Assembly (NCBI GenBank): GCA_020057885.1
Contig: JAGVEX010000019.1
Location: 84,045 to 148,044, forward strand
Direction: 5' to 3'
Source of the DNA: a bacterium
GTDB lineage: Bacteria; Patescibacteriota; Patescibacteriia; Veblenbacterales; UBA10138
DNA length: 64,000 nucleotides
The notes below the pieces were generated by a model, which made no database searches, was not told the origin of the DNA, and was given only the letters and a program-made list of their open reading frames with translations. Shown piece after piece: positions 35,020 through 53,000 of the stretch (the stretch's first letter is position 1; each line of letters opens with the position of its first letter). The position numbers and the translations under genes are program-made.

Positions 35020-36369
35020 TCACCTTATCCACTCCACTGCCTCGTATATAGTTTTTACAGAGGCTATTTCCAGCCCTTTGGGTAATTTAGCATTGGCTGG
35101 CAACCCGGCTGTTAGGGCCTGTTTAAAACCCAAACGAGCGGCCTCCTGCAGACGCTTTTCTGCGCCCACCACCGGCCTTATCTCGCCACCCAAGCCTACC
35201 TCTCCAAAAACCACCAAATCATTCGGTAGCGGCCTTTTTAGGGCAGCTGAAGCCACCGCCGCGCATACTGCCAAATCCAAAGCCGGCTCACGGCTTTTAA
35301 ACCCACCTGCTAAATTAATATAAACATCACTAAAATTTAATTTCACTCCCGCGCGTTCAGCTAAAACCGCCAACAAAACCTGCAAACGATTAACATCAAA
35401 ACCAGTGGTAGCTCTTTTTGGATAATTTAATCTGGAGTGAGTTACCAATGCTTGTAACTCAATTAGCAAACTACGCGAACCTTCTAGCACCGCCGTAATA
35501 CAGGAACCAGCCCCCAAATGACGTTCAGCTAAAAATATAGCAGAAGGATTTGTTATCTCACGTAACCCCGCCTCGCCCATTTCAAACACACCAACTTCGT
35601 CGGTCGGACCAAAACGATTTTTATTAGCGCGTAAAAAACGTAAAGCTTGGTGTTCAACTCCATCTAAACTCAAAACCACATCAACTAAATGTTCAATTGT
35701 TTTGGGTCCAGCGGCTACGCCTTCTTTGGTAACGTGGCCAATTACAACCACTGCTATACCAGTTTCTTTGGCGAGTGCCACCAATTCTGACAAAATCATT
35801 TTAACTTGTGTGGGAGAGCCAGGATTACCCACCCCTTCGGACGCGCGTATGGCTTGCAAAGAATCAATTACTAATAAAACTGGGTTTAATTGCCGCGCTG
35901 TGGCTATCACTGTATTAATATCAACTTCATTGGTAAAAGAAATATTTTTACCTTTAAGTCCCAAACGTTTTAATCTGTTTGCTACTTGCTCCACAGATTC
36001 TTCGCCCGAAACATAAAGCACTGAGCCTGAACAACGCTCAGCCAAGCCAAGCAGTAAAGTGGATTTACCCACACCTGGCTCGCCGGTTAACAAAACAACC
36101 ACAGCCGAAGCGAGTCCTCCGCCTAACACTCTGTCTATCTCCACCCAGCCCGTAGCCAAACGGCGCGCTGGCGTTTCACTAATATGATCGCTAAGTGAAA
36201 CTGTGGCACCAGCGAGGTTCAACGCTGTGTGTTGAGTCTGACGGGTAACTGCGGTTGGCTCCGTGCCTACAGTGCCAAATTTACCACATTGGTTACAACG
36301 CCCTACCCATTTAGGGTATTGCGCGTCACAATTTGAGCAAATATAAATAATAGATGATTTAGGAGACAT
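35020..36369 (-). CDS. radA: DNA repair protein RadA/Sms
   Basis: N-terminal C4 zinc finger, Walker A 'GEPGVGKSTLLL', the 'KNRFG' motif, and a Lon-like C-terminus. Confidence 0.9.
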   Translation of the reverse strand: MSPKSSIIYICSNCDAQYPKWVGRCNQCGKFGTVGTEPTAVTRQTQHTALNLAGATVSLSDHISETPARRLATGWVEIDRVLGGGLASAVVVLLTGEPGVGKSTLLLGLAERCSGSVLYVSGEESVEQVANRLKRLGLKGKNISFTNEVDINTVIATARQLNPVLLVIDSLQAIRASEGVGNPGSPTQVKMILSELVALAKETGIAVVVIGHVTKEGVAAGPKTIEHLVDVVLSLDGVEHQALRFLRANKNRFGPTDEVGVFEMGEAGLREITNPSAIFLAERHLGAGSCITAVLEGSRSLLIELQALVTHSRLNYPKRATTGFDVNRLQVLLAVLAERAGVKLNFSDVYINLAGGFKSREPALDLAVCAAVASAALKRPLPNDLVVFGEVGLGGEIRPVVGAEKRLQEAARLGFKQALTAGLPANAKLPKGLEIASVKTIYEAVEWIR

Positions 36370-37505
36370 TATTTAATACAAAATTTAGATAATGGACTAG
36401 AGCCAGGATATTCAAAATGCCATTTTTCACGTTTACTAACAATGGGATTGCCTATTAACTGACAAAAACCAGCTTGCTTCATAATACCAGTTAACACATC
36501 TTGGCAAGGATCACTGGAGCTCTTGCCTTTGCACACCACGTCAACTGCCTGACCTGTAGTATGAGGACAATTAGCTTTATCTGGTTTAGGCTTACAAGTG
36601 TCCACTAAACATTTTCCATTTTTACAATTCTCTTCGTAAAGTTTTAATTGTTCGGCGTAAGTGCGTGAAGCATAATTAATTTCAATTTTTAAACCTTGAT
36701 TTTGGGCAGCTCGCGCAACTGTCAATAAAGTCTGCAATACATCTTCACGTAAAAAAGGATACTTGGCCGCGTCGGCATCTAAATAAAGAGTGGGGTTATC
36801 TTCTGGAATGCGCACTAAAGCAGGATAACCAGGAGGATTTTCCACCTCTTCTTCCACTAAATCAAGGGTTTGGCGTGGAATAGTAGTAATATCTAAAGTT
36901 TTAAAACTAACCAAAGCAGGGTTGATAAGATTTAAAAGTGTATAAGAAATTAAAGCTAACACTAAACCAGATATAGCGCTTATAATAGCGTCGTTAGCAT
37001 CTTTAACCCGCTCTGGCGAGCCAGCGGCCATAATACGTTTAAATCCGCCCCACGTTACCATTACGACTGAGGTTACGGCCAACATGGCAATAAAAAATTT
37101 ATAAAAAAGACTTAAGTAATTAACAAAAGTATCTCCCGTTACAACTATCCCCTGACCTGCTTTAACTTCAAAATTTTTACCAGCAATAGAAATACTGCCT
37201 GGAATGGTAATTTGTGGTGTAAATTCAATTGGCCCACTTTTTTCTTCACTCACACCAACGCCGCCACCAGTTGAAGGCGCCGAATCGTCGCGTACACAAC
37301 TATATGTTTCCCAGGTATCAACGCCACTGGCACGACTAGCATTACGGTGTTCACATTTAAAACCAGCACAACATATAATCTCTTGGCAATTGCCTTCGGC
37401 TGTAGTGCCTCCGGCCACGCAAGCTAATATCGCTTGAGGTGTGATTAACCAAAATAAACCAACCACTGCAACTATAATAAAATGCCACTTTTTTTTCTGA
37501 ACCAT
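36369..37505 (-). CDS. Cys-rich secreted protein with a central VirB2/TrbC-pilin-like double-transmembrane core (paralogue A)
   Basis: A signal peptide, Cys-rich segments, and the core 'FYKFFIAMLAVTSVVMVTWGGFKRIMAAGSPERVKDANDAIISAISGLVLALISYTLLNLINP'. That core is roughly 90% identical to the core of ORF 41374..42732. Confidence 0.5.
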   Translation of the reverse strand: MVQKKKWHFIIVAVVGLFWLITPQAILACVAGGTTAEGNCQEIICCAGFKCEHRNASRASGVDTWETYSCVRDDSAPSTGGGVGVSEEKSGPIEFTPQITIPGSISIAGKNFEVKAGQGIVVTGDTFVNYLSLFYKFFIAMLAVTSVVMVTWGGFKRIMAAGSPERVKDANDAIISAISGLVLALISYTLLNLINPALVSFKTLDITTIPRQTLDLVEEEVENPPGYPALVRIPEDNPTLYLDADAAKYPFLREDVLQTLLTVARAAQNQGLKIEINYASRTYAEQLKLYEENCKNGKCLVDTCKPKPDKANCPHTTGQAVDVVCKGKSSSDPCQDVLTGIMKQAGFCQLIGNPIVSKREKWHFEYPGSSPLSKFCIK

Positions 37506-37508
37506 AAA

Positions 37509-38168
37509 TTATCTAATAAACGCCTTTAGTTCATCTACAGTAAGTGTACCACTATACACCTTATCTTTAGTAATAAAATAAGGCGTACCATCCACCCCCA
37601 AAGCTGTTGCTTCGGCCATATTATACTGTATTAATGGCAAGGTTTCGTGTTTATCTAAACAATGGGCAAAGCTTGTTAAATCCAAATCTAAATCTGCCGC
37701 CAAATTACGATAAAAACCGGCACTCAAATTATTTTGATTAGCAAATAATTTACTATGAAATTCCCAAAATTTACCCTGCTTACCCGCGCACTGCGCCGCC
37801 TCGGCCGCCGCCCGCGCCTCGCCATGCTCTGGTAAAGGAAAATCTTTCCATACTAAACGTACCTGACCCTTACTACCCCCCACTACTTCTGCCAACACGG
37901 GAACCATATCAGCACAATAAGGGCATTCAAAGTCACTAAATTCTATTAAAGTTGTGGGAGCACTATTATTACCCAAAATTGGATCATCTGGCAAAATAGT
38001 AATTTGACCAGGTGATTTGGTGGGTGAATTATTAGTGGTATTAGTACTTAAATTTGATGACTCAGATGTTGGCTTGTTATTTTGACCACGCAATTGCCAA
38101 ATTGCTATAACAAATACTACTAAAATGGGTATAAGCAATAAAGCTAATGGACTACGCCGAGCTGTCAT
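37509..38168 (-). CDS. DsbA-like thiol:disulfide oxidoreductase (thioredoxin fold, membrane-anchored)
   Basis: 'FSDFECPYCADM' (CxxC), an N-terminal transmembrane helix, and 219 aa. Confidence 0.7.
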   Translation of the reverse strand: MTARRSPLALLLIPILVVFVIAIWQLRGQNNKPTSESSNLSTNTTNNSPTKSPGQITILPDDPILGNNSAPTTLIEFSDFECPYCADMVPVLAEVVGGSKGQVRLVWKDFPLPEHGEARAAAEAAQCAGKQGKFWEFHSKLFANQNNLSAGFYRNLAADLDLDLTSFAHCLDKHETLPLIQYNMAEATALGVDGTPYFITKDKVYSGTLTVDELKAFIR

Positions 38169-38257
38169 AAAATAAATATAAGAATTACGAATTATGAATC
38201 ACGAATCAAGAATAAAATTAAATTCATCATTCGGTATTCATGATTCAAAATGTTTTA
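38169..38257. repeat. Intercistronic heptad-repeat hairpin ('gaattac gaattat gaatcac gaatcaa ... tcatcat tcggtat tcatgat tcaaaat')
   Basis: 7-nt periodic 'GAATnnn' arm, then the complementary 'TTCnnnn' arm. It fills the whole spacer between two minus-strand genes. Confidence 0.5.
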
Positions 38258-39523
38258 CTATTGTAATTTTACGCTTCTAAGCTTGCCACTGGTATCGGTA
38301 AAATAAAGTATTTTTCCATCCTGAGAAATTGTTAAATTAGTAGCCGTGAGAGCAGTGCCTGTTTCGTCTATTGGCTCAGCCACCAAAGTGGTAGAACCAG
38401 TTTGCAAATTAACACGATAAATATAATCGGGAATATTATTGGCCATCTCACGTGTAAAACCAGCGCCTTCAGGCAACTCCTTGGGCACCGCGCAATAAGC
38501 CACCTCACCAGATAAATTACATTTATCCGACCAAGTAGCCAAACCTAAAGACTGTTTGTTGGAACCCACACTATCTGTAGCGGCATCTACCAGCCATAAT
38601 TCTGGTTTATAATTTGTTGTATCACTATAAACAGAATAAAGTAGTTTTTTACCATCGGGTGTCCAATTCGACTCAAAGCCCCGGCCATCAACTGTTAATT
38701 GCGGAAAATTTTCCCCATTTAAACCTATCAAAAGAACATTTTGTTGAAACAAGCCAGCTGGCTCACCAGTGCGCGACAAGGCCACTACTTGATTATTAGG
38801 AGACCATTCAACATCAACTTTATCAGCATTTTCGCCCATTGCTTCTATACCGGTAAGCCCCGAACCGTCTGGATTTACTGTAGTAATCCAATTATTAGAT
38901 AAACTATCCCCTAAATACTTACCGGCGATTTTTTGTCCATCACTCGAAAAAGAAAATTCAGTCATCTCTTTGGGCAAAGTATATTGTTTTTTACTCTGGA
39001 AATCATATAACACATTCGCGCCATCGGGAAATTCTAAAATAGCGCTATTGCTACTGGGTGCCCAAGTAACGGTTTGAACCTGGGGATATAAGGCGTCGGT
39101 TAAAAGACTTTTTGCACCGTCTGGAGAAATTTCATAAAATTTACCATCAGCCGCGTTATAATAGCGAACACTATCTCCGGTAGCACTGGCAGGAAACATT
39201 GTTGAGCCGCTAGTTAAAGCTGTAGCGGCTGTGGCACCACCAACAGCCACTGGCGAACCAGGTTGATTTGTTAAACCAGCATTAACATTAACGTTTACAT
39301 TTACATTAGAAATCGGCAAATTAACTCCGCCTGGACCACTTACATTAACATTGCCGTTTGTGGTAGGAGGAAAACCGGTTGGGCCATTTACGTTAACATT
39401 ATTATTGGGCAATGCTTGTTCTGATTTAGTAAATAAAATAAACAATAACCAAGCTAAAACACCAATAGCTATTACAACACCAACTGTTAATAAAATTTTA
39501 CGACGATCAATATTCTCAAACAT
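38258..39523 (-). CDS. TolB-like beta-propeller (PD40-repeat) protein with an N-terminal transmembrane anchor and an (NVN)n low-complexity linker
   Basis: Transmembrane helix, 'NVNVNGPTGF...NVNVNVNVNAG', then repeated 'DG.K..Y' propeller-blade motifs. Confidence 0.45.
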   Translation of the reverse strand: MFENIDRRKILLTVGVVIAIGVLAWLLFILFTKSEQALPNNNVNVNGPTGFPPTTNGNVNVSGPGGVNLPISNVNVNVNVNAGLTNQPGSPVAVGGATAATALTSGSTMFPASATGDSVRYYNAADGKFYEISPDGAKSLLTDALYPQVQTVTWAPSSNSAILEFPDGANVLYDFQSKKQYTLPKEMTEFSFSSDGQKIAGKYLGDSLSNNWITTVNPDGSGLTGIEAMGENADKVDVEWSPNNQVVALSRTGEPAGLFQQNVLLIGLNGENFPQLTVDGRGFESNWTPDGKKLLYSVYSDTTNYKPELWLVDAATDSVGSNKQSLGLATWSDKCNLSGEVAYCAVPKELPEGAGFTREMANNIPDYIYRVNLQTGSTTLVAEPIDETGTALTATNLTISQDGKILYFTDTSGKLRSVKLQ

Positions 39524-39531
39524 ATACTAAT

Positions 39532-40149
39532 TTATTTAAGATAGCTTCTCATTTGTTTCAGCAACTCAGTTTTTACTTCGGACCAATTGATGCGTTCCAA
39601 AAGAATGGGGTTAGGTTCACGTTCGGCTTCAACGAAATAAACCAAACTTTTAAGCAAATGGAGATGATTATATTTTACACCTTTATACTTTTTATCAAAC
39701 CAATCTAATAACTGTTTCAAAGAATAAACGCGCAATAACACATACAAATCAAAAAAATCTTTGCGACTGCCTCGGCTAGAAATGGCTTGCAGTTTCATAC
39801 AGCCAATATCGGCTGGTGCGGCCAAATTTACTCCCTGATAAGATACTAACCGACGCAATAATTTATAAGGATAAAAAAGAAAACTTAATCTTATTCCAGC
39901 CAATCTAATATGCAAAGTACCAATGTCTTCTGAGACAACTGTTATTTTACCAATTTTAGATAGTTGCCTTTTAAGTAAGTTCGAAGAAAATTTATGCGCT
40001 GAAAACCAATCAAAATCCAGCGATTGCCTGTGGCCACACTGCAAAGCCAGGGCTGTTCCACCAGCCATATACCAATCTCCATTTTTTAAAATTCCTCCTA
40101 ACTTAGGCAGTAATCTTTTGGCAGTTGGTAGCAAAATTTCTTCATGCAT
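39532..40149 (-). CDS. AbiEii-family nucleotidyltransferase (type IV toxin-antitoxin toxin-like)
   Basis: 'MAGGTALALQCGHRQSLDFDWF' matches the AbiEii / DUF1814 N-terminal nucleotidyltransferase motif. 205 aa. Confidence 0.65.
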   Translation of the reverse strand: MHEEILLPTAKRLLPKLGGILKNGDWYMAGGTALALQCGHRQSLDFDWFSAHKFSSNLLKRQLSKIGKITVVSEDIGTLHIRLAGIRLSFLFYPYKLLRRLVSYQGVNLAAPADIGCMKLQAISSRGSRKDFFDLYVLLRVYSLKQLLDWFDKKYKGVKYNHLHLLKSLVYFVEAEREPNPILLERINWSEVKTELLKQMRSYLK

Positions 40150-40159
40150 ATTACTAACC

Positions 40160-40453
40160 TCATTTTTTAATAACTACCTTCCATAACGCCTTACTTTTAG
40201 CATCAAGCTCACGAGTTTTAACAATAACGTTATACAACAAACTTGGGGAATATATTTTTTTTATAACCTTCCAATCCCCAATATCGCCAAATTGCAAAAC
40301 ACGTTTAATAATAAAAGCGCTATGCTTTTTAGGTTTTAACGTTTTGGTTGCTATATCCCAAAAAAGACCTTGTGAAAATTTACTACTAAATAAGCTCATA
40401 TATAAATTATAGCATATTTTAATTGTTTTTACAACCTTTGCGGCTTTTACCAC
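40160..40453 (-). CDS. Small protein upstream of the AbiEii-like gene. It may be the cognate antitoxin.
   Basis: 97 aa, 10 nt upstream of the toxin-like gene on the same strand. No family recognised. Confidence 0.3.
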   Translation of the reverse strand: MVKAAKVVKTIKICYNLYMSLFSSKFSQGLFWDIATKTLKPKKHSAFIIKRVLQFGDIGDWKVIKKIYSPSLLYNVIVKTRELDAKSKALWKVVIKK

Positions 40454-40511
40454 TACTTACAATACACGCGCAAAAATCCAAAACCTAAATCACTTTAAAT
40501 TATCAACATTA

Positions 40512-40537
40512 CACATTGTGACGGCCGTCAAAAAGTG
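40512..40537. repeat. GC-core palindrome P2 ('cacattgtgacggccgtcaaaaagtg'), the left border of PaaX-like cassette 1
   Basis: Perfect 12-bp core 'tgacggccgtca'. The arms match apart from two mismatches. It sits within a left flank that is about 85% identical to 63515-63593. Confidence 0.55.
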
Positions 40538-40559
40538 TTATATTGATTAAAGGAATATA

Positions 40560-41108
40560 TTGTTAACAATATTAATGATAATTAATTTTATGGAACAACT
40601 AAGTCTAACAAAACAAATCCTTCTTACCTTACTCGATGGGGCTTCTGAATTAAGAGGCATGCATAAAAATATGAGACTTATATCTCCTTTTCGCGGCATA
40701 ACCAAAACGCCAAATTATTATGTATCGCTTGGACGACTCAAACGGCGTGGTTACATAAAACAAATAAATAATAACTATTATTTAACTTTACAGGGCAAAC
40801 AATTAGCGCAACATTTACTTGTCAGACAAGCTCTTAAGATAAAAAGCCAACGTTGGGACGGGCAATGGCGTATGGTGTGTTTTGATATTCCAGAAAAATT
40901 AAGACGCGAACGAGCGGCTTTACGCAATTTTCTTTATCGTTCCGGATTTCGAAAATTACAAGAAAGTGTCTGGCTAACACCATATGACGTAATAAAAGAA
41001 GCTGTTGACACATGGAAAGAACTTGGGCTGGCGCCTTATGTTCGCACAGCGCTTATAAAATCGCTTGATAACGAAATTGAATTTAAAAAACTATTTAAAC
41101 TCACCTAA
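40560..41108 (+). CDS. PaaX-like protein with an N-terminal winged-helix and a C-terminal Cas2-like motif (cassette 1)
   Basis: The N-terminal half looks like a wHTH. The C-terminal half has 'WRMVCFDIPEKLRRERAALRNFLYRSGFRKLQESVWLTPYD', a Cas2/PaaX_C-like beta-alpha-beta core. It is a paralogue of ORF 53388..53939. Confidence 0.55.
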   Translation: MLTILMIINFMEQLSLTKQILLTLLDGASELRGMHKNMRLISPFRGITKTPNYYVSLGRLKRRGYIKQINNNYYLTLQGKQLAQHLLVRQALKIKSQRWDGQWRMVCFDIPEKLRRERAALRNFLYRSGFRKLQESVWLTPYDVIKEAVDTWKELGLAPYVRTALIKSLDNEIEFKKLFKLT

Positions 41109-41204
41109 ATCACGACGGTCGTTATTAAATTTTAAGTAAATTAAAACAACTTACTTAATATTAAGTAAGTTGTTAATAAATTTATAACTTTTTTATCTAT
41201 CTAA

Positions 41205-41230
41205 CACTTTTGGTCGGTCGACCAAAAGTG
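41205..41230. repeat. GC-core palindrome P3 ('cacttttg-gtcg-gtcg-accaaaagtg'), the right border of cassette 1
   Basis: 9-bp arms 'cacttttgg' / 'ccaaaagtg'. The centre is the palindrome 'ggtcgacc' carrying a 4-bp 'gtcg' tandem duplication. Confidence 0.55.
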
Positions 41231-41289
41231 TAAGGTTTAAAAAATAAGGGTTAATAATAGTTTAAATTAAATAAATTGTTTAGACTAAA

Positions 41290-41372
41290 ATGTTCAAGCT
41301 AAAATTCCAATAGCTATTACAACACTAATTGTTAATAAAATTTTACGACGATCAATATTCTCAAACATAAAT
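41290..41372 (-). pseudogene. Duplicated 5'-fragment of the TolB-like gene (24-codon remnant)
   Basis: About 90% identical to 39450-39523. It encodes 'MFENIDRRKILLTISVVIAIGILA' then a stop. Confidence 0.45.
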
Positions 41373-41373
41373 T

Positions 41374-42732
41374 TTATTCCTCTAACTTACTAACACAATG
41401 AGCGCCAAACTTACTCACCTTGCAATCCTTTTTACAAACATCATAATAACATAAGGCCATCTTAGGTTCAAAGCTATCACAATCACTAAATTGGGAACAG
41501 GTTTGAATAATCTCATTAACCCAAAGACTTTGAATATTATCATTACATGGCTTCCCCATAAATACAGCGTTCCAATTTGGATAGCATGCATTCAAATATA
41601 AAGCACAAGAATTGGTCACACCGCCACAATCAGCATCAGAAGTGCATATATCACCCTGTTTAAGACCACTGTCACATTTTTGAACGCGATAACTAAACTG
41701 ATTACAAAAATTAGTAAAAGACTGAATAGTGCTATCACCCCAATCAGGTAATCCATATATACTCTTGGCTATATCCATATTTATAGCCATACAGGCTTCG
41801 TTGGGATTTAAACACTCATAGTCCTCCTCAGATATACCAGTATTACCTACGCGAACGCAGCCACCCTTACCACTCTCACACGACGACCCAATACATGACT
41901 GTCCATTAATACTCTCTTTAACACCACACTTATAATGAATACTACTATCAAGTGGATCAGGGTCTGGACACCATTTTCCATATAACTCCGTTTTAACTAT
42001 ATCCATATTAAGACGAGTAAAATTAACAAGTTTAGGATTTACTAAATTAAGAAGTGTGTAAGAAATAAGAGCTAGCACTAAACCTGTGATTGCAGAAATA
42101 ATAGCGTCATTGGCATCTTTAATACGCTCTGGTGAACCAGCAGCCATAATACGCTTAAATCCGCCCCACATTACCATTACTACCGAAGCTACGGCCAACA
42201 TGGCAATAAAAAATTTGTAAAATGCCGCCAAATATCCAGGAAAACCACCACTAACAACGCTGCCGTAACCAGGAATTGGTATTTGTAAATTTATATCCGG
42301 AGTTTTTACAAAACAACGCGCTGACGGGGCCGTACAATTAGATGAATCACTTCTATCCTCATCAAAATCACCTTTCGCGCTATTACATTGCTCTTTCGTC
42401 CAACAATTATTAAAAATTGACCCCGTGTCAGTTGTTTTTGCTCCCGAAACTTTTGTACAACTATTATCCAGATAAGGTTTGCATAGCCAAGTATATACAT
42501 TATAATTTGAATTTATTCTATTTAACTCATCTGTTTTATTAATACAATCATTTGAAGACAAATTTGGAAAACATTCAGCTACTGCAGTAACATATGTTGT
42601 ATCTATAGACACCTTGTCACATCCACAAGAATCCGCCTGCGCGGGCATAGCAAAAATAAACACACCAAACATCAAAACGGCTATTTCAACTATTATTGGA
42701 ATTTTCTTTAATAAATGCATAGCTTTACTCAT
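41374..42732 (-). CDS. Cys-rich secreted protein with a VirB2/TrbC-pilin-like double-transmembrane core (paralogue B)
   Basis: A signal peptide, the core 'FYKFFIAMLAVASVVMVMWGGFKRIMAAGSPERIKDANDAIISAITGLVLALISYTLLNLVNP', and more than 30 cysteines in the N- and C-terminal extensions. Confidence 0.5.
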   Translation of the reverse strand: MSKAMHLLKKIPIIVEIAVLMFGVFIFAMPAQADSCGCDKVSIDTTYVTAVAECFPNLSSNDCINKTDELNRINSNYNVYTWLCKPYLDNSCTKVSGAKTTDTGSIFNNCWTKEQCNSAKGDFDEDRSDSSNCTAPSARCFVKTPDINLQIPIPGYGSVVSGGFPGYLAAFYKFFIAMLAVASVVMVMWGGFKRIMAAGSPERIKDANDAIISAITGLVLALISYTLLNLVNPKLVNFTRLNMDIVKTELYGKWCPDPDPLDSSIHYKCGVKESINGQSCIGSSCESGKGGCVRVGNTGISEEDYECLNPNEACMAINMDIAKSIYGLPDWGDSTIQSFTNFCNQFSYRVQKCDSGLKQGDICTSDADCGGVTNSCALYLNACYPNWNAVFMGKPCNDNIQSLWVNEIIQTCSQFSDCDSFEPKMALCYYDVCKKDCKVSKFGAHCVSKLEE

Positions 42733-42802: not shown

Positions 42803-43285
42803 TCATTTAAACGGACTAAATATATCATTCGCCACAGAACATACCAAATTTAACCACTGCCCACCCAAAGCCTCGCAAATTACCTCCGGCTGATCTTTAA
42901 TAGTAATAAACAAACCAATTATTATAAACAAGATAAATAATACAAGAAAATCTATAATTATATATAACACCTTACGCCATAATGATAATTTCCAACTGGG
43001 TCTAATAATCGGCAAAACCAGTTCAGCATTAATAGTAAGAAAAATTATTATTAACGGAAACACGAGCCAAGAAAATGGCAGTAGGGCTAATTTAAAATTA
43101 TCAAGGCCTTTTTGCAGTGCTGTATCAGCCGCTTTTTGGATTAAACTAGGACCCGATCCTTTGCTGGATTCTACTTTTAGCATTTTTAAATAACCACCGC
43201 GTCGACCAGCCTCTAGGTTATCTTTCATTACCTGTTTATTATACTCTTCAGCTGATTCTTGATTATTGTTATCTTTATCGGGCAT
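42803..43285 (-). CDS. Hypothetical membrane protein (160 aa, 2-3 transmembrane helices)
   Basis: Hydrophobic segments. Lies within the type IV secretion-like cluster. No family recognised. Confidence 0.35.
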   Translation of the reverse strand: MPDKDNNNQESAEEYNKQVMKDNLEAGRRGGYLKMLKVESSKGSGPSLIQKAADTALQKGLDNFKLALLPFSWLVFPLIIIFLTINAELVLPIIRPSWKLSLWRKVLYIIIDFLVLFILFIIIGLFITIKDQPEVICEALGGQWLNLVCSVANDIFSPFK

Positions 43286-43377
43286 AATATTAGTGAATTA
43301 CGAATCATGAATCACGAATTAACAATTAAAAATAAATTCAGTATTCAGTATTCGTGATTCGGTATTCAAAAATCAAA
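43286..43377. repeat. Intercistronic heptad-repeat hairpin ('gaattac gaatcat gaatcac gaattaa ... ttcagta ttcagta ttcgtga ttcggta ttcaaaa')
   Basis: Strict 7-nt periodicity. 'gaatcacgaa' pairs with 'ttcgtgattc'. It fills the whole spacer between two minus-strand genes. Confidence 0.5.
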
Positions 43378-43941
43378 CTACTCACTCTCCCAACTCGCGC
43401 TATCTACCAACCAATTTTCTCCTGACTTACTTAAACTAACACGCAGGGTAGCATAAGAAATTTTAACCTCACCGTCACGGGTGAATACTTCCTGGCGCTG
43501 GGTTGAGATGGTTAATTCGGCCGCGCTGTCAGTTTGTCTATCTACTTTGGCCACCAAAGCTTTGGTAGTAACACTATAAAAACCAGCTGGCTTGGTTCCG
43601 GATTTAATAATACTATTCACCCTCGTTTGAAAAGAGGGGGTTAAAATGCCTGTTAAATTCTTTAAATTTTCATAAGGCATATCGTTGGAATAGGTGCCAT
43701 AGCGTTCGGCAAAGTTAAGCGCTAAAACACGCGCCGAGAGTGTGGTATCTGTTAGTTTGGGGATCGGCTCAACAACGCCAGTTGGCGTATTTATTGTTGG
43801 TGTATTTGTTGAAACTGCTGGCTGATTAATATTTGTGTTTACATTTGTATTATTATTTTGTAACCAAAAATAAAGCCAAACCGCTAGTAAAATGACTAAA
43901 ATTATTACTAAAACTAAAAGAATTTTGGAGCGACGAGACAT
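43378..43941 (-). CDS. Bitopic membrane protein, possibly a VirB8-like scaffold
   Basis: N-terminal transmembrane helix, a Thr/Asn-rich linker, and a roughly 120-aa extracytoplasmic domain. Its position next to VirB4 suggests the role. Confidence 0.3.
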   Translation of the reverse strand: MSRRSKILLVLVIILVILLAVWLYFWLQNNNTNVNTNINQPAVSTNTPTINTPTGVVEPIPKLTDTTLSARVLALNFAERYGTYSNDMPYENLKNLTGILTPSFQTRVNSIIKSGTKPAGFYSVTTKALVAKVDRQTDSAAELTISTQRQEVFTRDGEVKISYATLRVSLSKSGENWLVDSASWESE

Positions 43942-44188: not shown

Positions 44189-46054
44189 CTAACCAATGTC
44201 TGGCTCTTTCAGGCTTGCTTCAAATTCCTTTTTGGCTTGCTCTATTTCCAAAAGCTGACGAGGATCAGAAGTAATAAGCTGATCTTCGGTGTAAGAAGCC
44301 ACTATTTTAATAGCCGCGTGCTTAGACCCGGCAAAGAAAATGCCCTCACCCACACCACACTCCAAAAGTAAATATTTTTCTCCCTCTGTCAGTAAGAAGG
44401 TTTTTACTACTTTATCAATTCCAGCAGGAGACTGTTTGAGCAATAATTGCAAGGCTGAGTTATTAACAATTGCCTGACCATAGGGCGAGGTTAAGAAATC
44501 ATTTACATCTTGTGTAATTGTGGTAACGCCAAGATAATATTTACGACAACGCTTAACTAACGCAAAAATAAACTTGGCGCTATCTTCGTTTTGCATTAGC
44601 CACCACGCTTCATCAATAACTAAAACACGTTTTTTCATTTCTGAGCGCACTACATTCCAAATGTAATTAACGATTGTATAAATCGCAATCGGCCGTAACT
44701 CATCTTCTAAATCGCGTACAGAAAATACTACTAATTGGTTTTTTACATCCACGTTAGTGGGCCTGTTAAAAAGTCCGGCAAAAGTACCGTCGGTATATTT
44801 TTTAAGCCTCAATACCAAATCTTCGCCCCCTTGCATACCCGCGAGCACCTCTTGAAAATCAGCCATCACCGGCGACTCCACTTTGGTTAAATCGGAATTG
44901 GGCGTAATATCTTTTTTGGCATAAGTTTCTAAGAGGGCTCTATCAACCAACGAATCCTCTTGATGAGTAAGGGTGCCAAGCATTAAACGCATTAAACCTT
45001 TTAGGGTAATTACAGCGGAACGAATAATATCGCCTGTATTTACCTCGCCCACTGGCCTGGGTAAATCAAAGGGATTAATTTTAGATTCAGAATTCAAAGA
45101 AATATTAATGTAAGCACCACCCACAGCATCGGTTAAATGCTTATATTCCATTTCTGGATCAATAATAATTACATCGGTACCCATCATTAAACTACGCAAC
45201 ACTTCCAGTTTTACAGCATAGCTTTTGCCAGCGCCCGAAGTGGCAAAAACAGTCATATTGGCATTTTGCAAACTAAATCTATCAAATAAAATCAAGGAAT
45301 TATTGTGTCTATTTATACCGTATAAAATACCACTATCACTAGTTAATTCCGAGGAAATAAAAGGGAAAGAAGAAGCGGCGGGCGAACTGTTCATATTAAA
45401 GTAAACTTGTAGTTCGTCGTTGGCGAGGGGTAAGGTGGAGTTAAAGCCTTGTTCTGATTGCCAAAGAGCGCGCCGTGAATAAACCAACTTTGAACCAAGC
45501 ATGCTTTCTACTTCCTCTGTTATTTTGTCTAACTCTTTTTTATCTGGAGCATACAGAGTAAGATAAAGCCCGACTTGAAAAAAACGTTCCGTGCCTTGAG
45601 TTAAACTGTCGCGCAATTGTTCAATATCGTGCAAAGCTGTTTCGCGAATCGGGTCGCGCGGAGCGCCTTTATCATGGTCGGCCACCAGTTGGGCCTCAAT
45701 TGCACCCACACGATTACGCAGTTGTTTTAAAATGACTTCTGTTTTTACATTATAGAAAAACATACTTACATCCAAAGTCGCGTTCATATTCACAATTGGC
45801 GCAAACCAACCAACCGAGATATAGCGAGGATAAGTGAGTATAAATAAAGTACGCAAATATACGCCGTTTAACTCCACGTGTTCCGATTGAACACGAAAAG
45901 CAGCTGGTGCAATTAAATCACGCACCTTTACCGAGCCCTCGCGCAATAAGCGCTCAGCCTCTAAGAGTTCCTTTTCAGTAGCTTGCCCCAACTCTTCCAC
46001 GGGCGGAGGGGGCGGCGCTAATTCACTGGTTACTTTTGATACATCAATGGCCAT
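44189..46054 (-). CDS. VirB4/TrbE-family type IV secretion ATPase, C-terminal ATPase-containing part
   Basis: Walker A 'ATSGAGKSYAVK', Walker B 'RVLVIDEAWWLM', and a VirB4-like middle region. 621 aa. Confidence 0.75.
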   Translation of the reverse strand: MAIDVSKVTSELAPPPPPVEELGQATEKELLEAERLLREGSVKVRDLIAPAAFRVQSEHVELNGVYLRTLFILTYPRYISVGWFAPIVNMNATLDVSMFFYNVKTEVILKQLRNRVGAIEAQLVADHDKGAPRDPIRETALHDIEQLRDSLTQGTERFFQVGLYLTLYAPDKKELDKITEEVESMLGSKLVYSRRALWQSEQGFNSTLPLANDELQVYFNMNSSPAASSFPFISSELTSDSGILYGINRHNNSLILFDRFSLQNANMTVFATSGAGKSYAVKLEVLRSLMMGTDVIIIDPEMEYKHLTDAVGGAYINISLNSESKINPFDLPRPVGEVNTGDIIRSAVITLKGLMRLMLGTLTHQEDSLVDRALLETYAKKDITPNSDLTKVESPVMADFQEVLAGMQGGEDLVLRLKKYTDGTFAGLFNRPTNVDVKNQLVVFSVRDLEDELRPIAIYTIVNYIWNVVRSEMKKRVLVIDEAWWLMQNEDSAKFIFALVKRCRKYYLGVTTITQDVNDFLTSPYGQAIVNNSALQLLLKQSPAGIDKVVKTFLLTEGEKYLLLECGVGEGIFFAGSKHAAIKIVASYTEDQLITSDPRQLLEIEQAKKEFEASLKEPDIG

Positions 46055-46107: not shown

Positions 46108-46797
46108 TTAGTTTGTTTCTACTTGCAATTTATCTAATTCGACTAATTTTTGTTGCTCTCTAATTTCGGGATTATAAGTTGTATAATAAAGCTCAATCAA
46201 ACTTTGCGTATCCAGCCTAACCGCTTTTACACCCATAGAAGATAAGCCCGATTGAATATATCCGGTGCGCCTATCCAAAGCCTCGGCGTAACGGTTAAAA
46301 TCGGTACGCGATAATTTTACTGAATAAGCCGCGGAAAAAATTGAAGTAAAGCGTCTAAAAAAAGAACGCCGTTTATCTGACCTGTGGTCATATGTTACCA
46401 CCACATAAAACCGTTTGGTCATAATATCACCTAAACTAATAAGCTCGCGAATATAAGCGAGATACTCTGTAATTTGCACGCGTAAAAGTTCGTTAGTTTG
46501 TTGTTTTTGTAAAGCCTCCAAATTAGTCAAATATTTATCTATATTAAGTTTACGCGATTGAATAACTATCTGTAGAGGAGAATCCAAAGAATTAAGAAAA
46601 TTAATATAGGCCTGAATAGTGGCATTTTGTTCATCTTCACTTTTAAGCGCAAAATTAACCGAGGAACACAAAAACACCGAGCGCAGAGTGCCATCTTTCA
46701 TCACCACACAATTATCGTGAATTTCGGCAATATCTAAATACGAACTGGTAGGCGGACCGGCTTTGGCTTTTTTTGGTTTAGTTTCAGTTTTGGACAT
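46108..46797 (-). CDS. VirB4 N-terminal domain (CagE/TrbE/VirB-type) encoded as a separate ORF
   Basis: 'CVVMKDGTLRSVFLCSSVNFALKSEDEQNATIQAYINFLNSLDSPLQIVIQSRKL' follows the characteristic VirB4 N-domain pattern. It is in a different frame from the ATPase ORF and separated from it by 53 nt. Confidence 0.55.
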   Translation of the reverse strand: MSKTETKPKKAKAGPPTSSYLDIAEIHDNCVVMKDGTLRSVFLCSSVNFALKSEDEQNATIQAYINFLNSLDSPLQIVIQSRKLNIDKYLTNLEALQKQQTNELLRVQITEYLAYIRELISLGDIMTKRFYVVVTYDHRSDKRRSFFRRFTSIFSAAYSVKLSRTDFNRYAEALDRRTGYIQSGLSSMGVKAVRLDTQSLIELYYTTYNPEIREQQKLVELDKLQVETN

Positions 46798-46807
46798 AAA
46801 ATATAAA

Positions 46808-46945
46808 TTAAATCCTAAATTCTAAATCCTAATATCTAAATAAATTCCAATACCAAAAACCAATTTAATTATTTTTAGATTACACTTATCAATTTTACAC
46901 ATTGGGAATTGGGAATTATTTAAGATTTAGACATTAAGATTTAAG
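46808..46945. promoter_or_regulatory. About 150-bp intergenic repeat unit (copy B) with 'TAAATCC' heptads, ending 13 nt before the VirB4-N ATG
   Basis: See copy A. The minus strand reads 'tagatat taggatt tagaatt taggatt taattta'. Confidence 0.45.
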
Positions 46946-46962
46946 GCTTAACTAACATATCT

Positions 46963-47418
46963 TTACTCTTCGCTCTTACTAACTTCATCTTCTTCTGGCT
47001 TATAGGCTCCTCCTGTATCCACTAATAAAGTAAGTTGTTGTAAACGTGATTGTTGCAAAAGCGGCTTAGTGCGGCCACTAGCAGTGGCTACTATGGGAAT
47101 TGACTTATGAATAGATTCTTGCAAATCATCAGTGCTAATAACTTTTTGCCACACGCGGAGTTTGGGTTTTTTTAAGGTTTGTATGAGGTTAAACAAAAAG
47201 TAATGAAATGGCATACCGTTAAATTTCACAAACGCAAACATAATACCTATGCCAACTGTTATCACTGTCTCCAGAACAAACCAACCAAAAGCCGCTAATT
47301 TAAACTCCAAAAAAATAACAAAACCAACCAGCATTATAATTATAAACTGACGTATGGTAAGAGGACCGATTATTTTATCCTCGACGTCTATAAATTGTGG
47401 CACGACAATTTGCTGCAT
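46963..47418 (-). CDS. PrgI / VirB3-like small type IV secretion membrane protein
   Basis: 'MQQIVVPQFIDVEDKIIGPLTIRQFIIIMLVGFVIF' matches the PrgI-family N-terminus. Two transmembrane helices. It lies immediately upstream of the VirB4 genes. Confidence 0.5.
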   Translation of the reverse strand: MQQIVVPQFIDVEDKIIGPLTIRQFIIIMLVGFVIFLEFKLAAFGWFVLETVITVGIGIMFAFVKFNGMPFHYFLFNLIQTLKKPKLRVWQKVISTDDLQESIHKSIPIVATASGRTKPLLQQSRLQQLTLLVDTGGAYKPEEDEVSKSEE

Positions 47419-47829: not shown

Positions 47830-50052
47830 CTAAAATCTTATCTTCTGATTAAAATCTATTATGGCGTTGAATTCGGCTTCGGAAAGTGTTTGTTCGCCTT
47901 GTGTTTGCAAACTAGCCACTATTTCAACAATTGATTTTTCTTGTTCAATGCTAGCTCGGCCTAGTTTTAAATAGAGTTGGTACACAGGCGAAGCTTGCCA
48001 AGAACGCACTGCTTCCACCCGCCGCGATACTGAAGTTTCGCCAATCAAATCTATTTTGGCTCGAACTTTATTCAAAGCCTCCACGGGCGATGAATCAAGC
48101 CTCCTAAAATCAACTAGGTTCAAACTTTTTAACTCTTCCAGTGGACCTAAGGTTCGTGGTGGCGCTTTAATATCTGTTAATTGTGGCCTAATGTTGTTAG
48201 TTGCTCCTAATTCTTGTCCACTTGTTCCTAATTTGGGTGGTGATGGGGGCTGTGCCCCGTGATCAACTACAGTTGATTTTACGGGGGGTGGGGGGGCGGC
48301 TTTGGAAATTTCTTTTAACAATTCCTCCCGCCAATTTTTAAATTTATCCTCACTAAGCGGCTTGTCTTCAATTTTAGTTGCTTGGGCAGCTACCCTAATA
48401 TCTGAACTCTGAATTTCTTTAGGATTTAGCCTGCCTGCGACTCGATTGAGCTCGCCGAAATCCGGTAGGTAGGGATTTTCGGATTTAGGATTTAATTCAC
48501 CAATCTTATCACTCTTGGGTAAAACCACTTGGGGGCCAGTGACCGGTGATGGAGGGCTAACAACTATTGGCTTATCTTCCCCCATTAATTTATCCAACTC
48601 GCTTTGCATTTTTTCCTGTTCTGTTTGTGGCTTACTATTTACCACTGGTGCAGGTTCTTGCTTCGTGATTCTTACTTCGTGATTCTTACTTCGTGATTCA
48701 AACTCACTTTTAGCATCTTCAATAATTTTTATAACTTGTTCTGTTTTATCAACCGGCAAACCTAAACCGCCCGAAGTTACTGGTTTTAATAATGTTTCGC
48801 GCACTTCCACCACATTGCGCACATCTTTTAAGTGTGATACAAACAAATTTATAAACCTGCGCTTGCCAACTTCGTCCTTAAAACTAAAATTATGTTTTTT
48901 AATTGTTTCATCGGCGAGCACTCTTAATTTTTCTTCTAATGTATTCATGATTCGTAATTCAGTATTCGGTATTCTTAATTTATCAACTTCTTTCTCATCT
49001 TCCAAGTTAAAAAAGAATGCCGGTTCAGTAGTTTTTAAGGCTTGAGGAACAAGTTGATTTGTTATTGGTGATACTAATTCTTCTGTCTGTACTCGTGCTT
49101 TGTAATCAGATGCAGTTAATTTTGTGGAGACTGGTCCTGAAGCAGACATTTTAACCACTGCTGGCGCTAACCGAACTGAAATTGGTAGCTCTGCCACCTC
49201 AGTTGCTATTGGTACAGGGACTATTCCAAATGATTGCTGGATAGTTATCGTATTATTTTTCTGTAAATCAATTTTACTTGCCTCTTTATTATTTAAAATA
49301 CTGTTTACTTTAGCGAAAATATCCTTAATACTATTTTCATTATATTCCTCAAACCAACCACCTTTCACCCAACCAGATTTAGCCCCGTCTATCGGAATAC
49401 TTTCCTCTAACCCCTCTAATTCAGTTGATAACAAATGGCAATGTTCATAAACATTTATCAAGTCTCTAAATTTGTCACGCGAGGCAGGTGACAACACCCT
49501 TAATAATTGCGATGAGGAAAAATACTGTTCTTGTTGATATTTATCACTTCTTTTATTGGCCGTAAATACTAAAAAATCTTTTAAAAAGCCGCCAACGGTT
49601 AGGTTGTTTTCTTTCCAATCTGGTAATCTTATTTTTTCTTGATTATTTAACAAAACGTCTATGATTTGTTTTTTTAATTTATTTCTATCTTCATAAACTA
49701 ATATACTTAATAAAGCGCTTTTAAATTTATTATTCAGTTTAAAATCTTCTATCTGCCACGCATCATTAATATGATAATGAAATTGTTCAACAATCTCACT
49801 TTCGTTTAACAATGATAATCCTACCCACTTGCAATGAGCGATGATCTTTTGATAATTACTATATAATTGACCAAACTTCGAATCAATTTTACTCTCTTTT
49901 AAACCAAACTCTAAAGATCTCGCTAATTTATAAGCAGACTCATAATCATCATACTTTTCTATATCACTCAAGCTAGTCAACATCTCCTGATAAACTACAA
50001 GCGATGTTAATGGATATTGTTCAATTAATTGTTTTATACTTGCCATAGACAA
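47830..50052 (-). CDS. Hypothetical cytoplasmic protein (740 aa) of the type IV secretion-like cluster, with a Pro/Lys-rich low-complexity C-terminal third
   Basis: No transmembrane helix or signal peptide. Heptad-type DNA repeats are embedded in the coding sequence at 48660-48700 and 48945-48980. Confidence 0.45.
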   Translation of the reverse strand: MSMASIKQLIEQYPLTSLVVYQEMLTSLSDIEKYDDYESAYKLARSLEFGLKESKIDSKFGQLYSNYQKIIAHCKWVGLSLLNESEIVEQFHYHINDAWQIEDFKLNNKFKSALLSILVYEDRNKLKKQIIDVLLNNQEKIRLPDWKENNLTVGGFLKDFLVFTANKRSDKYQQEQYFSSSQLLRVLSPASRDKFRDLINVYEHCHLLSTELEGLEESIPIDGAKSGWVKGGWFEEYNENSIKDIFAKVNSILNNKEASKIDLQKNNTITIQQSFGIVPVPIATEVAELPISVRLAPAVVKMSASGPVSTKLTASDYKARVQTEELVSPITNQLVPQALKTTEPAFFFNLEDEKEVDKLRIPNTELRIMNTLEEKLRVLADETIKKHNFSFKDEVGKRRFINLFVSHLKDVRNVVEVRETLLKPVTSGGLGLPVDKTEQVIKIIEDAKSEFESRSKNHEVRITKQEPAPVVNSKPQTEQEKMQSELDKLMGEDKPIVVSPPSPVTGPQVVLPKSDKIGELNPKSENPYLPDFGELNRVAGRLNPKEIQSSDIRVAAQATKIEDKPLSEDKFKNWREELLKEISKAAPPPPVKSTVVDHGAQPPSPPKLGTSGQELGATNNIRPQLTDIKAPPRTLGPLEELKSLNLVDFRRLDSSPVEALNKVRAKIDLIGETSVSRRVEAVRSWQASPVYQLYLKLGRASIEQEKSIVEIVASLQTQGEQTLSEAEFNAIIDFNQKIRF

Positions 50053-53000
50053 TTACAAAGTTTTGGTTTTAACTTTAGCTTTATCTAAAACCTCGTCTGC
50101 ATTCATATAAGCCTCTTTAGCTGGAACACCTCCTTTTTTAGATGGTATAGAATTTATCTTTGCTAACAACGCTGGCATAAAACCACTTTCTTCTATTATC
50201 TTGCCCTCTTTGTCCTTTTTGCCATTCCAATCTTCTCTCATTCTATCTGCAGTTCGTTTCCTTTTTTCATATTCTTCTGGATCGGTCGCTTTGTATTTTT
50301 CTGCCCCCTCTTGAATACTTTGTGCCTCAAGTTCAATTTTTATACCAATTTGTTTTAGTACTTTCATGTTATCTTCGCTGTTCATATTTTCTAACATGTT
50401 GCCATTAGCCTCCCTCATATGTGTTTTAAGTTCGGAATAATGTTCCAGTATATAAGCAACGCCCATTTCGTTTAAAACCGCCTTACGGCCCTTGCTAAGA
50501 TCATTTGGATCTATTGGTTCTTCGTCCATCCAGGCACCACGATTAGATTGACGCCACACGGTCCTCATATCCCGTTTACCGATTTCAACATAACAACGCT
50601 GTTTTTGTGTCTCACGATCACGTTGTTTAAATAAACCATTATCCATTGATACGGCTTGACCAAATGTCCACCAACCCTTATCCTCTGCCACATTACTTAA
50701 ATCATTTTCTAGAGACAAATAAGATTGTTCTTTCATATGAAACTTGTGTCCCATAACCTCATTCATAAATTTATGTAAGCCATCAATGTTGGTTTTATAA
50801 CCTTGATCTTCTAAAATTTCATTTAAATGACCTACTTCGGTAGCTCTAGCCATAATAGCCTGTCCTAAAGCAGAATCACCCCTGTTAAGGGCATCGCGAA
50901 ATCTTGATTTTAATTCATCTTCATTAGTCGTGGTTATTTTCTTCTTTTCTTCATTTACATGCGCACGACCTGCCGCAGTAGCATAATAATTTTGTAATCG
51001 ATAACACCCCTCTCTTTCAATTTTCTTACCAACCTCTTCTGCTTGTCTACGCTTGTCTTTGCGCTCAGATAATGTAAGCTCTGGTGTTTCTAAACGATAC
51101 TGCAAGTTAGCACTTTCGTTGTTAAGTTCTAAAATTTTATTTTCTTTATCTTTCTTTTCATTGTTAGTAAGTTTGCTAAAGTCACTCATATCTTTTTTTC
51201 TTTTTTCCATTTCTTTAAGATTTTCCTTGGCTGTTGTTGTATCCTCTCCACGAGCTTCTTTGGCTGTTATATCTTTTTTTTCTTTATCAATTTCTATTTG
51301 AATCTCAGCTATAATTTTTCCACGTTGCTCTTTTTGGGCATTAGTAAGAGTATCTTTCCCTAATTCCTCAACCTCTCTTTTAATTACCTCTTGTCTTTTC
51401 TTTAACAATCCACTTCCTTCGTCGTTTAATATTTTCCTTTCTTCAGCAGTAAATTTATTTCTCATAACATCATCCATAATATCCTCTTCTTTTTCTCCGG
51501 CTGCTTTTCGTGTTACAATTTCGCTTTTTTGATCAATAACTTTTTTCTGCAAATCACTGTTTGCTAATACGCCTCCATTTAAAACATGTTTTATGGCTGT
51601 TTCTGACTTGCTTTCAGCTGAGGATTCTTTGTTTAATTTCTCTTGCCGACTCTGTAATCCTTCAGTCTTTTTGGCATTACTAAATATACCTCTAATTGTT
51701 TTGAGATATAAAAATCCTTGTAAATTATCTCCTATATCTTCCGAGCCTAAAGAAGCTGCTAGTCCTCGTACACCACCTTGGGCTATATTAGCCGCGGCGG
51801 CTTCATGAAGCTCGCCTTCTTCTTTGTGTTTTTTTGTTGCAAAACCTTCTTTTACATTTTTCCAAGCTTTAACAGGGTTTAATTCATACCCTTTAAGCCA
51901 CTTGAAGCCTGGCACTTTACCTGCCCCAGCTTTTCTAGCTGCCCAAGAATAAGTACTAAAGGGCGCCAAAGCGCTCTTTTTAGCCATCCATGATCCTCCT
52001 TTTTGAATCGCGCTCATCGCACTCCCGGCCAATTTTCCCCCCGCCACGCCGAGTTGCTGTGTCATCCATAAACCGCCCAAAAGCAACATAATGCTAACAA
52101 TAAAAGAAAGCAAAACTTCTGATTGACCAATACTAGTAATAGTCGCGGCGGGAAGTCCTGAAGTTCCTGTGCTAACTCCCGTAAGAGTGCTAGCTGTAGA
52201 TCCGCCCGACATCTGCATTACTGCCAAACTTAACCACAAAAAGAAAGCGAGAATAGGCCCGCTGGAAGCATATTTGCCAAAATAATCCCACCACTGCGAA
52301 GCATACTTTTTAGCATCTCCCGGAAAAGCCTGCAAAATATAAGCCGCGGGAGAAATAATTACCAAAAGCCACAGCATTACAATTCTAAGCGTAAACACCA
52401 CAATATAAACTCCAACTACAATAGTGGCAATGGTAATGGTAATAAGTGCCAAAGCCGCCGCAAAAAAGAAATCTGAACCCGTTGTAGTTACAGTTTGATT
52501 CGAACCTTTTTCCGCGAACTGAAACATATCCTTAATATGGAAACCATTTATAAAGTTGCCCGTAGCCGCATCCTTAAACCCGTTTACAAAAGTAAGCATT
52601 ACCACCTGCGCAAAATCAATAAAGAATCCGGCAATACCTTTGGAAAAATTAACCAGTACTGCCATAATAAGCAATTTGGAAAGTAGGTGTTTGTATTGAT
52701 ATTCCTCCACGCGGAATACTGTACCAAAAGAAATAGCCAACAATATTACAATAAAAAACATGTTTACCACATCCCTCATTACCACCCAACCTTTTACTAC
52801 TGCTGGCGCATCAATAAAACCGTTGTATTGCACAATTTCCACTAAAATACCTATCAAAGCATTGGCGATTGCTCCCACCCCTTGGGCTAAAAGTAACAAA
52901 AGTCCAGCTAAAAGGTTAATTACAGCATCAGAAACTATATTGGCATGCGCTGGTATTGGTAAAAGCAAGGCCAAAACAAAAATACCTAAAATACCCGCGG

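Follow-up and report, generated by a model that had tools for sequence, protein, structure and literature searches.

The type IV secretion systems (T4SS) of Patescibacteria carry VirB2-like pilins that are detected with the family model PF18895, generally without a recognisable VirB1 (Quinonero-Coronel et al. 2025, PMC12102498), and in the class ABY1 the T4SS clusters are co-located with recG and radA (PMC12102498). In Southlakia epibionticum the T4SS pilins have proved essential (Wang et al. 2023, PMC10633639; for a review see PMC12857230), and the published accounts treat the pilins of the phylum as small proteins encoded in arrays of 2-11 divergent copies, with a mean identity of 25% and a maximum of 54% (PMC12102498, PMC10633639). 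We analysed a 64-kb stretch of a Patescibacteria genome (contig JAGVEX010000019.1; herewith called the window, and all coordinates are window positions), in which two minus-strand open reading frames, A (378 aa) and B (452 aa), code for VirB2-like proteins with a nearly identical membrane hairpin set between unrelated domains (Table 1). Both agree with the known Patescibacteria pilins in belonging to PF18895, in lying within a chromosomal VirB4/PrgI cluster and in having the ABY1-type radA and recG neighbourhood, but differ from them in size, in that the two hairpins are 92% identical while the rest is unrelated, and in that one of the two is fused to a hydrolase. Neither PMC12102498 nor PMC10633639 mentions pilin fusions or gene conversion, and our literature and full-text searches gave, among the papers searched, no earlier account of a pilin-hydrolase fusion or of pilin gene conversion in Patescibacteria. 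Since the published accounts are without either, we judge as new the modular build of these VirB2-like proteins, of which one is a fusion of the VirB2-VirB1 type, and the concerted evolution of their hairpin; the pilin family itself is known.

With the TrbC/VirB2/TraA pilins of Gram-negative T4SS (PF04956), A and B have in common a signal peptide, two hydrophobic helices and a short basic loop, as well as a position next to VirB3/VirB4, and relatives of their hairpin match PF04956; unlike those pilins, the mature proteins are 4-5 times larger and have folded domains at both ends, and their assembly into a pilus is putative. As a predicted membrane-tethered peptidoglycan enzyme encoded in a T4SS cluster, A resembles VirB1, PrgK (pCF10), TraG (pIP501) and TcpG, but its tether is a pilin hairpin instead of a plain N-terminal helix, and its enzyme is of the VanY/LdcB type instead of SLT or CHAP and is exchanged between genomes. 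Modular type IV pilins, such as the bimodular PilB and PilC of Streptococcus sanguinis, carry a functional module grafted on the pilin and displayed by the filament; these belong to an unrelated pilin superfamily, with a class III signal peptide and a single N-terminal helix. A and B likewise carry a module on a pilin moiety, though one of a different superfamily. Conversion between pilin copies is known for pilE/pilS of Neisseria. Families of VirB2 paralogues exist in Anaplasma and Bartonella (PMC12102498). With these systems A and B have in common the presence of several pilin paralogues and recombination between the copies, but in those bacteria the exposed parts are made diverse by recombination and duplication, whereas for A and B conversion homogenises the buried hairpin and the exposed parts are unrelated.

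One pilin hairpin between unrelated flanks

BLASTP aligned A residues 117-212 with B residues 155-249 (73% identity, E 2e-41) and gave no further alignment of the two proteins outside this segment. An ungapped core of 62 aa within it is identical at 57 of 62 residues (92%) and at 153 of 186 bases (82%), and the identity drops to random level within about 10 codons on either side. A preceding inspection of the DNA, the sequence-only reading, had noted a segment of about 70 aa common to both proteins at about 90% identity, with flanks that could not be aligned by eye, and both points hold; of the two DNA ranges that it suggested for alignment, 42000-42240 is right for B while 36750-36990 lies about 120 nt too low for A. 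Profile-profile comparison of the N- and C-terminal flanks by hhalign, using 17-19 homologues for each protein type, gave probabilities below 9%, and flank homology was ruled out, the sole common element being a 9-residue motif, PQ[IV]xIPG. Beyond the hairpin the two protein types have no other likeness than this motif, whose P, I, P and G are invariant in both. It is situated about 25-35 residues upstream of the hairpin with variable spacing, and may serve in processing or docking. When the entire window was scanned with phmmer in six frames, only the two core copies were detected (E 2e-44 and 3e-38), the next best match being at E 0.16.

The hairpins of A (residues 125-194, 27.8 bits) and B (residues 172-230, 28.1 bits) both exceed the gathering threshold of 26.6 for Pfam T4SS_pilin (PF18895); with the NCBIfam pilin-like model NF045849 they score 28.9 and 27.6, both under its cutoff of 40. 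In a Pfam census of 103 core-bearing cluster representatives, T4SS_pilin was found in 100, SLT in 15 and TrbC/VirB2 (PF04956) in 13, the best match to the latter being 9.8e-14, together with M15, VanY, C39_2, SLT_2 and SLT_3 in several each. Both proteins start with a signal peptide, after which come two hydrophobic helices and the short charged loop between them, and the genes of both share a cluster with those of VirB4 and VirB3/PrgI. A and B are thus members of PF18895 by score, architecture and context, although neither is a small protein consisting essentially of the hairpin. The passing of PF18895, the T4SS neighbours and the PF04956 matches of relatives support the core as a VirB2-type pilin module, in line with the VirB2/TrbC-like nature suggested for it at the outset.

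The AlphaFold2 (AF2) models of A and B have two hairpin helices of about 30 residues each, and the loop that joins them is rich in K and R in both proteins. The predicted topology is out-in-out, with both flanks outside the cell. All 44 cysteines, 14 in A and 30 in B, are outside the signal peptide and the hairpin, in segments predicted to be extracellular. The description of A and B as secreted Cys-rich scaffolds needs modification in two respects: by prediction both proteins are held by the hairpin or assembled into a pilus, with the flanks outside the cell, and are not freely secreted, and the C-terminal part of A is a VanY-type zinc peptidase.

Gene conversion confined to the hairpin

The identity of the core was compared among 14 genomes that hold both A-type and B-type genes. 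Within a genome the identity is 0.91 in amino acids, 0.83 in nucleotides and 0.63 at third positions, while between genomes it is 0.72, 0.68 and 0.42, respectively, for hairpins of the same type and equally for those of different type. The between-genome amino acid identity (0.723 for the same type versus 0.717 for different types) carries no type signal, which indicates homogenisation after speciation. For 21 of the 29 hairpins the nearest neighbour in DNA is the paralogue of the own genome, and paralogous hairpins of the same contig have lineage-specific residues in common; unlike the hairpin, the ten residues immediately upstream of it cluster by protein type. In one Veblenbacteria genome (L002) a tract of about 190 nt is identical at 184 of 186 bases, with every third position matching, and has sharp borders with unalignable sequence on both sides, leaving gene conversion as the only explanation. 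The hairpin-coding stretch of about 190 nt of the two genes is thus repeatedly homogenised within genomes by gene conversion, a process that the sequence-only reading had proposed. The last conversion events differ in age, the synonymous divergence (dS) of the pair extending from 0 in JBBIVB, through 0.27 in CALFUV, to saturation.

For the pair in the window the suggested comparison of synonymous and non-synonymous divergence gave a dS of 0.90 and a dN of 0.074 (dN/dS 0.08), values that point to strong purifying selection on the hairpin. Among identical residues, identical codons are used at a frequency of 0.62 against a background of 0.455 (p = 0.01), while a tract test was not significant (longest identical run 27 nt, permutation p = 0.16). 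The last conversion in the window is old, as the dS indicates. In the sister genome (L001) the orthologues are closer than the paralogues, and the last conversion thus predates the split from L001 and postdates the divergence from the other genomes. A recent domain insertion in the source genome was ruled out by the dS of 0.9 and by the identical architecture of this sister genome.

The opposite view, that an ancient duplication would suffice if the hairpin had since been under extreme purifying selection, fits the high dS, the low dN/dS and the run-length test of the window pair, and also the pairs of JAUYKG, LCEZ, CAZRDN and CAYVOI, in which the synonymous sites are at background. In JAUYKG (Candidatus Veblenbacteria; L011/L025) the hairpins are 95% identical in protein with a third-position identity of 0.42, equal to background, and this pair indicates that selection alone can hold the copies together for long after conversion. 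The equal similarity of same-type and different-type hairpins between genomes, however, is impossible without homogenisation after speciation, and the lineage-specific residues common to paralogues, the raised third-position identity within genomes and the nearly identical tract in L002 speak in the same direction. Contradicted by this tract and by the 14-genome comparison, selection as the sole cause is very improbable. Conversion and purifying selection are both confined to the hairpin.

A predicted peptidoglycan peptidase and its exchange between genomes

The C-terminal part of A matches Pfam VanY over residues 252-368 (28.9 bits against a cutoff of 25) and retains the peptidase motifs R281..Q286, H315-x6-D322 and E360-x-W-H363, which include the zinc ligands and the catalytic Glu. 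The A-type alignment made without P0079 (A5) shows R281, Q286, H315, D322 and H363 to be invariant, and the first A-type alignment (A2) shows the same for E360. By sequence the domain aligns with Bacillus LdcB (PDB 4mph/4jid; PHTTGQAVD versus SEHQTGLTMD), and by structure Foldseek found LdcB (4mph, E 1.3e-6) as well as VanXYc (4mus), VanY (5hnm), Ply500 (2vo9) and LysB4 (6akv). The AF2 model of the domain, with a predicted local distance difference test (pLDDT) score of 85-93, shows the LAS fold. Because profile, motifs and fold all agree, the domain is placed in VanY/M15B, that is, A ends in a VanY/LdcB-type zinc peptidoglycan peptidase with intact catalytic residues and predicted activity. 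The SLT lytic transglycosylase domain, the hallmark of VirB1, was not matched in A by Pfam.

The N-terminal domain of A contains C29, C40, C45, C46, C51 and C70, and among 17 A-type proteins C45, C46 and C51 are invariant together with P97, I101, P102 and G103 of the motif upstream of the hairpin. The spacing of the six cysteines (C-x10-C-x4-CC-x4-C-x18-C), with a predicted beta-hairpin, resembles that of an inhibitor-cystine-knot, a resemblance of pattern only.

In the A slot, defined by the gene order DsbA, pilin fusion and RadA, the proteins of different genomes are homologous in their N-terminal part and hairpin, while the C-terminal enzyme varies: it is VanY/M15 in the window and in five relatives (L001-L005), a C39-like peptidase (Peptidase_C39_2) in L031, a 3D domain in L032 and NlpC/P60-CHAP in L033. 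Domain shuffling, as had been suspected from the two unrelated sets of flanks, is therefore real, since the C-terminal enzyme of the A slot differs among genomes. Such interchangeable cargo points to one function, the cutting of peptidoglycan, which is the role of VirB1; in more distant relatives the VirB1 domain itself, SLT, is fused to the hairpin (15/103). The 76-aa core, used in an exhaustive phmmer search, yielded 7,505 cluster representatives (E <= 1e-3). A set of 193 relatives, which includes the best 150 of these representatives, has a median length of 430 aa, with a C-terminal flank of 217 aa in the median, and 30 of the 193 are multi-hairpin proteins with 2-5 or more hairpins in tandem. 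Based on the core search and the Pfam census, the hydrolase-bearing pilin hairpin is a widespread architecture.

From two to eight T4SS_pilin hairpins stand in tandem on one polypeptide in P0092, P0094, P0095, P0101, P0107, P0109, P0136, P0146 and P0168; in P0092 and P0095 four hairpins are followed by an SLT lytic transglycosylase, and some tandem repeats also match TrbC/VirB2 (E 1.5e-13).

For B, the Cys scaffold is conserved in the B-type family alignment. A fold search with its AF2 model (pLDDT 70) gave no match except helical hairpins. A likeness of B to the neighbouring 2768-aa Cys-rich protein was rejected, because only low-complexity Cys matches were obtained (E 0.019).

The T4SS locus and possible roles of A and B

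The minus-strand cluster begins with a 1002-aa polytopic membrane protein, a 740-aa protein, the PrgI/VirB3-like and TraC-like proteins and VirB4, and continues after VirB4 with two small membrane proteins, B, an insertion, a PD40 propeller, DsbA, A and RadA (Table 1). Apart from the insertion this order recurs in 8 related contigs, and in all relatives the gene of a PD40-protein homologue of about 410-430 aa separates the B-type gene from that of DsbA. Pfam gave no match for the 740-aa and 1002-aa proteins; the latter is a candidate VirB6 equivalent by its position and hydrophobicity. The TraC-like counterparts in relatives are annotated as PF26593. The 160-aa and 187-aa membrane proteins gave no family match, and a VirB8-like identity considered for the 187-aa protein was dropped after a sequence search without match. 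The DsbA-like thiol oxidase, with its CPYC motif behind an N-terminal membrane helix, shows the features of a DsbA and is encoded immediately upstream of A in 8 of the 9 loci examined, in good agreement with the sequence-only reading, in which the CxxC oxidoreductase next to A was connected with extracytoplasmic disulfide formation. The DsbA gene ends 3 nt ahead of the A start, and the A stop codon (36369-36371) and the start codon of radA overlap by one base, the last of the former being the first of the latter; from this tight packing dsbA, A and radA form one translationally coupled unit.

Table 1. Positions of the genes and domains of the T4SS locus in the window
Feature	Positions	Strand	Basis or remarks
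radA	35020..36369	minus	
A, 'hydrolase-pilin' (378 aa)	36369..37505	minus	signal peptide, six-Cys N-domain, PQITIPG, VirB2-like hairpin, VanY/M15 zinc peptidase
A, VanY/LdcB-like LAS zinc peptidase domain, residues ~247-368	36402..36767	minus	Pfam VanY, PDB LdcB, Foldseek
A, pilin hairpin core, residues 134-195	36921..37106	minus	92% aa and 82% nt identity to B copy; AF2 helices 124-159 and 164-194
A, N-terminal ectodomain, C-C-CC-C-C framework and PQITIPG	37197..37421	minus	A-type alignment, cysteine positions
A, PQITIPG, residues 97-103	37197..37217	minus	PQ[IV]xIPG motif
A, six-cysteine segment, residues 29-70	37284..37421	minus	cysteine spacing
A, signal peptide, residues 1-28, AILA/C	37422..37505	minus	KKK n-region, hydrophobic stretch, AxA-like site; AF2 helix 2-24
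Membrane-anchored DsbA-like thiol oxidase	37509..38168	minus	Thioredoxin_4 PF13462 E 3.9e-29, DSBA PF01323 E 1.5e-17, CPYC
DsbA-like, CPYC, residues 82-85	37914..37925	minus	
PD40/TolB-like beta-propeller, membrane-anchored	38258..39523	minus	PD40 E 3.8e-8
AbiEii-like toxin (insertion)	39532..40149		
DUF6922 partner (insertion)	40160..40453		
PaaX/Cas2-like regulator (insertion)	40560..41108	plus	
B, 'Cys-rich pilin' (452 aa)	41374..42732	minus	signal peptide 1-33 (AQA/D), 10-Cys N-domain, LQIPIPG, VirB2-like hairpin, 20-Cys C-domain
B, pilin hairpin core, residues 171-232	42037..42222	minus	A/B alignment; AF2 helices 163-196 and 201-231
B, LQIPIPG, residues 149-155	42268..42288	minus	PQ[IV]xIPG motif
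Two small membrane proteins (160 and 187 aa), between VirB4 and B	42803..43941	minus	~125-190 aa proteins in equivalent positions of relatives
VirB4-type ATPase	44189..46054	minus	P-loop_TraG E 1.1e-28, CagE_TrbE_VirB E 1.3e-4
TraC-like (229 aa) and PrgI/VirB3-like (151 aa; PrgI 46963-47418)	46108..47418	minus	PrgI E 5.8e-9, TraC_F_IV E 7e-4
740-aa protein and 1002-aa polytopic membrane protein (cluster head)	47830..53061	minus	open reading frames; ~600-620 aa and ~990-1090 aa syntenic counterparts in relatives
Second PaaX/Cas2-like regulator	53388..53939	plus	28% identical to the regulator of the insertion
Giant Cys-rich secreted protein (2768 aa)	54171..62477	minus	weak CBM_4_9 and DUF4141 matches only

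The A/B cluster is chromosomal, beside radA and recG, and the housekeeping genes around it are those of UvrA, UvrC, UvrD, RNase J, SHMT and RecG. When one genome per species was scanned, the A and B pair was recovered only in Candidatus Veblenbacteria, Kerfeldbacteria and further Patescibacteria. A and B thus belong to a chromosomal T4SS of the Patescibacteria type (Veblenbacteria/Kerfeldbacteria-like, ABY1-type), which is without a recognisable relaxase or coupling protein, in line with reports for this phylum. The locus was also present in third-party annotation metagenome-assembled genomes labelled 'uncultured Gammaproteobacteria bacterium' (L006, L009, L010, L015, L016, L020, L026, L028-L030), labels that are evidently wrong. 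Of the genes inserted between B and the PD40 propeller, the DUF6922 and AbiEii pair is found at the equivalent spot in L033, and DUF6922 with PaaX_M in L001, while the other relatives are without an insertion. The second PaaX/Cas2-like regulator is a candidate regulator of the cluster, because it is divergent from the gene for the 1002-aa protein, the first of the T4SS genes. The giant 2768-aa protein is encoded directly upstream of the cluster.

We consider it fairly probable that A and B are two co-assembling VirB2-like T4SS subunits with oxidised ectodomains, of which A serves as the VirB1 equivalent. Both proteins would be inserted via Sec, and the hairpin would enter the membrane with the KR-rich loop on the cytoplasmic side and both Cys-rich flanks facing outward, where the co-encoded DsbA could oxidise them. 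The hairpins would be kept identical because both must fit the same homotypic site or equivalent assembly positions. Most likely the hairpins of A and B pack against one another and form a mixed polymer or stalk of the VirB2 type, which VirB4 would extract from the membrane and which would display the wall-cutting enzyme of A as VirB1 equivalent together with the disulfide-rich domain of B, which may bind or stiffen; the apparatus would thereby cross the cell's own wall, and possibly that of a host. The mixed polymer is favoured because of the homology to polymerising pilins, the existence of tandem-hairpin proteins, which suggest packing of hairpin against hairpin, and the near-identity along the whole hairpin. 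In its full form, an enzyme-studded mixed pilus or stalk of modular VirB2-like subunits with hairpins kept interchangeable by conversion, in which the roles of VirB2 and VirB1 are merged in one polymer, this model is put forward tentatively.

Several observations weigh against co-assembly and the pilus model. We know of no experimental demonstration that any VirB2-like protein of Patescibacteria polymerises. Each subunit carries an N-terminal ectodomain of about 100-130 aa and a C-terminal one of about 180-220 aa, a bulk that may be excessive for the tight helical lattice of the VirB2 type. The six-frame scan revealed neither a third core copy nor a small 'plain' pilin in the 64-kb window, A and B themselves gave no match to TrbC/VirB2 (PF04956) at E <= 0.1, and the core profile matched no solved pilin among the PDB sequences. 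The role given to the B ectodomain is a guess, as no fold match was obtained for the ectodomains, and the window pair, taken by itself, argues weakly for conversion.

The large ectodomains are accommodated more easily if the hairpin does not polymerise but acts as an anchor that docks both ectoproteins at one site of the T4SS channel, formed by the VirB6, VirB3 or VirB4 equivalents. It would then resemble the anchors at the N-termini of PrgK and TraG, two hydrolases of Gram-positive T4SS; the hydrolases of monoderm T4SS are usually membrane-anchored (PMC12102498). The identity of the hairpin in the two proteins would be selected by one partner; a shared docking site explains equally well a conservation beyond the need of a passive anchor. 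The hairpin is, however, homologous to pilins and not to generic anchors, proteins with 2-8 tandem hairpins suggest hairpin-hairpin packing, and a single partner would not obviously demand near-identity over all 62 residues; docking alone, the chief alternative to the polymer, is a possible but doubtful account. VirB4 dislocates pilin from the membrane, and the hairpin might thus be a handle by which VirB4 extracts A and B for delivery to the host as a wall-lytic toxin and a Cys-rich factor. A cluster without recognisable relaxase or coupling protein and a hydrolase cargo that is swapped among genomes in the manner of effectors would agree with such secretion, but no immunity genes adjoin A, each of the two is a syntenic core gene of the cluster, present in one copy, and not a variable cargo island, and the B-type domains are conserved instead of diversified, making it improbable. 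Both this delivery and the origin of the pair by selection without conversion are less likely than the polymer or the docking of A and B.

In Patescibacteria the T4SS is essential for epibiotic life, and the surveys report pilins but mostly no VirB1. The present finding suggests where the wall-degrading function is located in this lineage, namely fused to the pilin module, with an exchangeable enzyme. Conversion confined to the hairpin would be an evolutionary signature of parts that must fit together. For a phylum with few genetic handles, two concrete proteins, with a putative dependency on DsbA, are hereby named as candidates for a pilus or stalk. With about 7,500 core-bearing representatives, many of them hydrolase-fused or with tandem hairpins, the architecture extends to many uncultured lineages.

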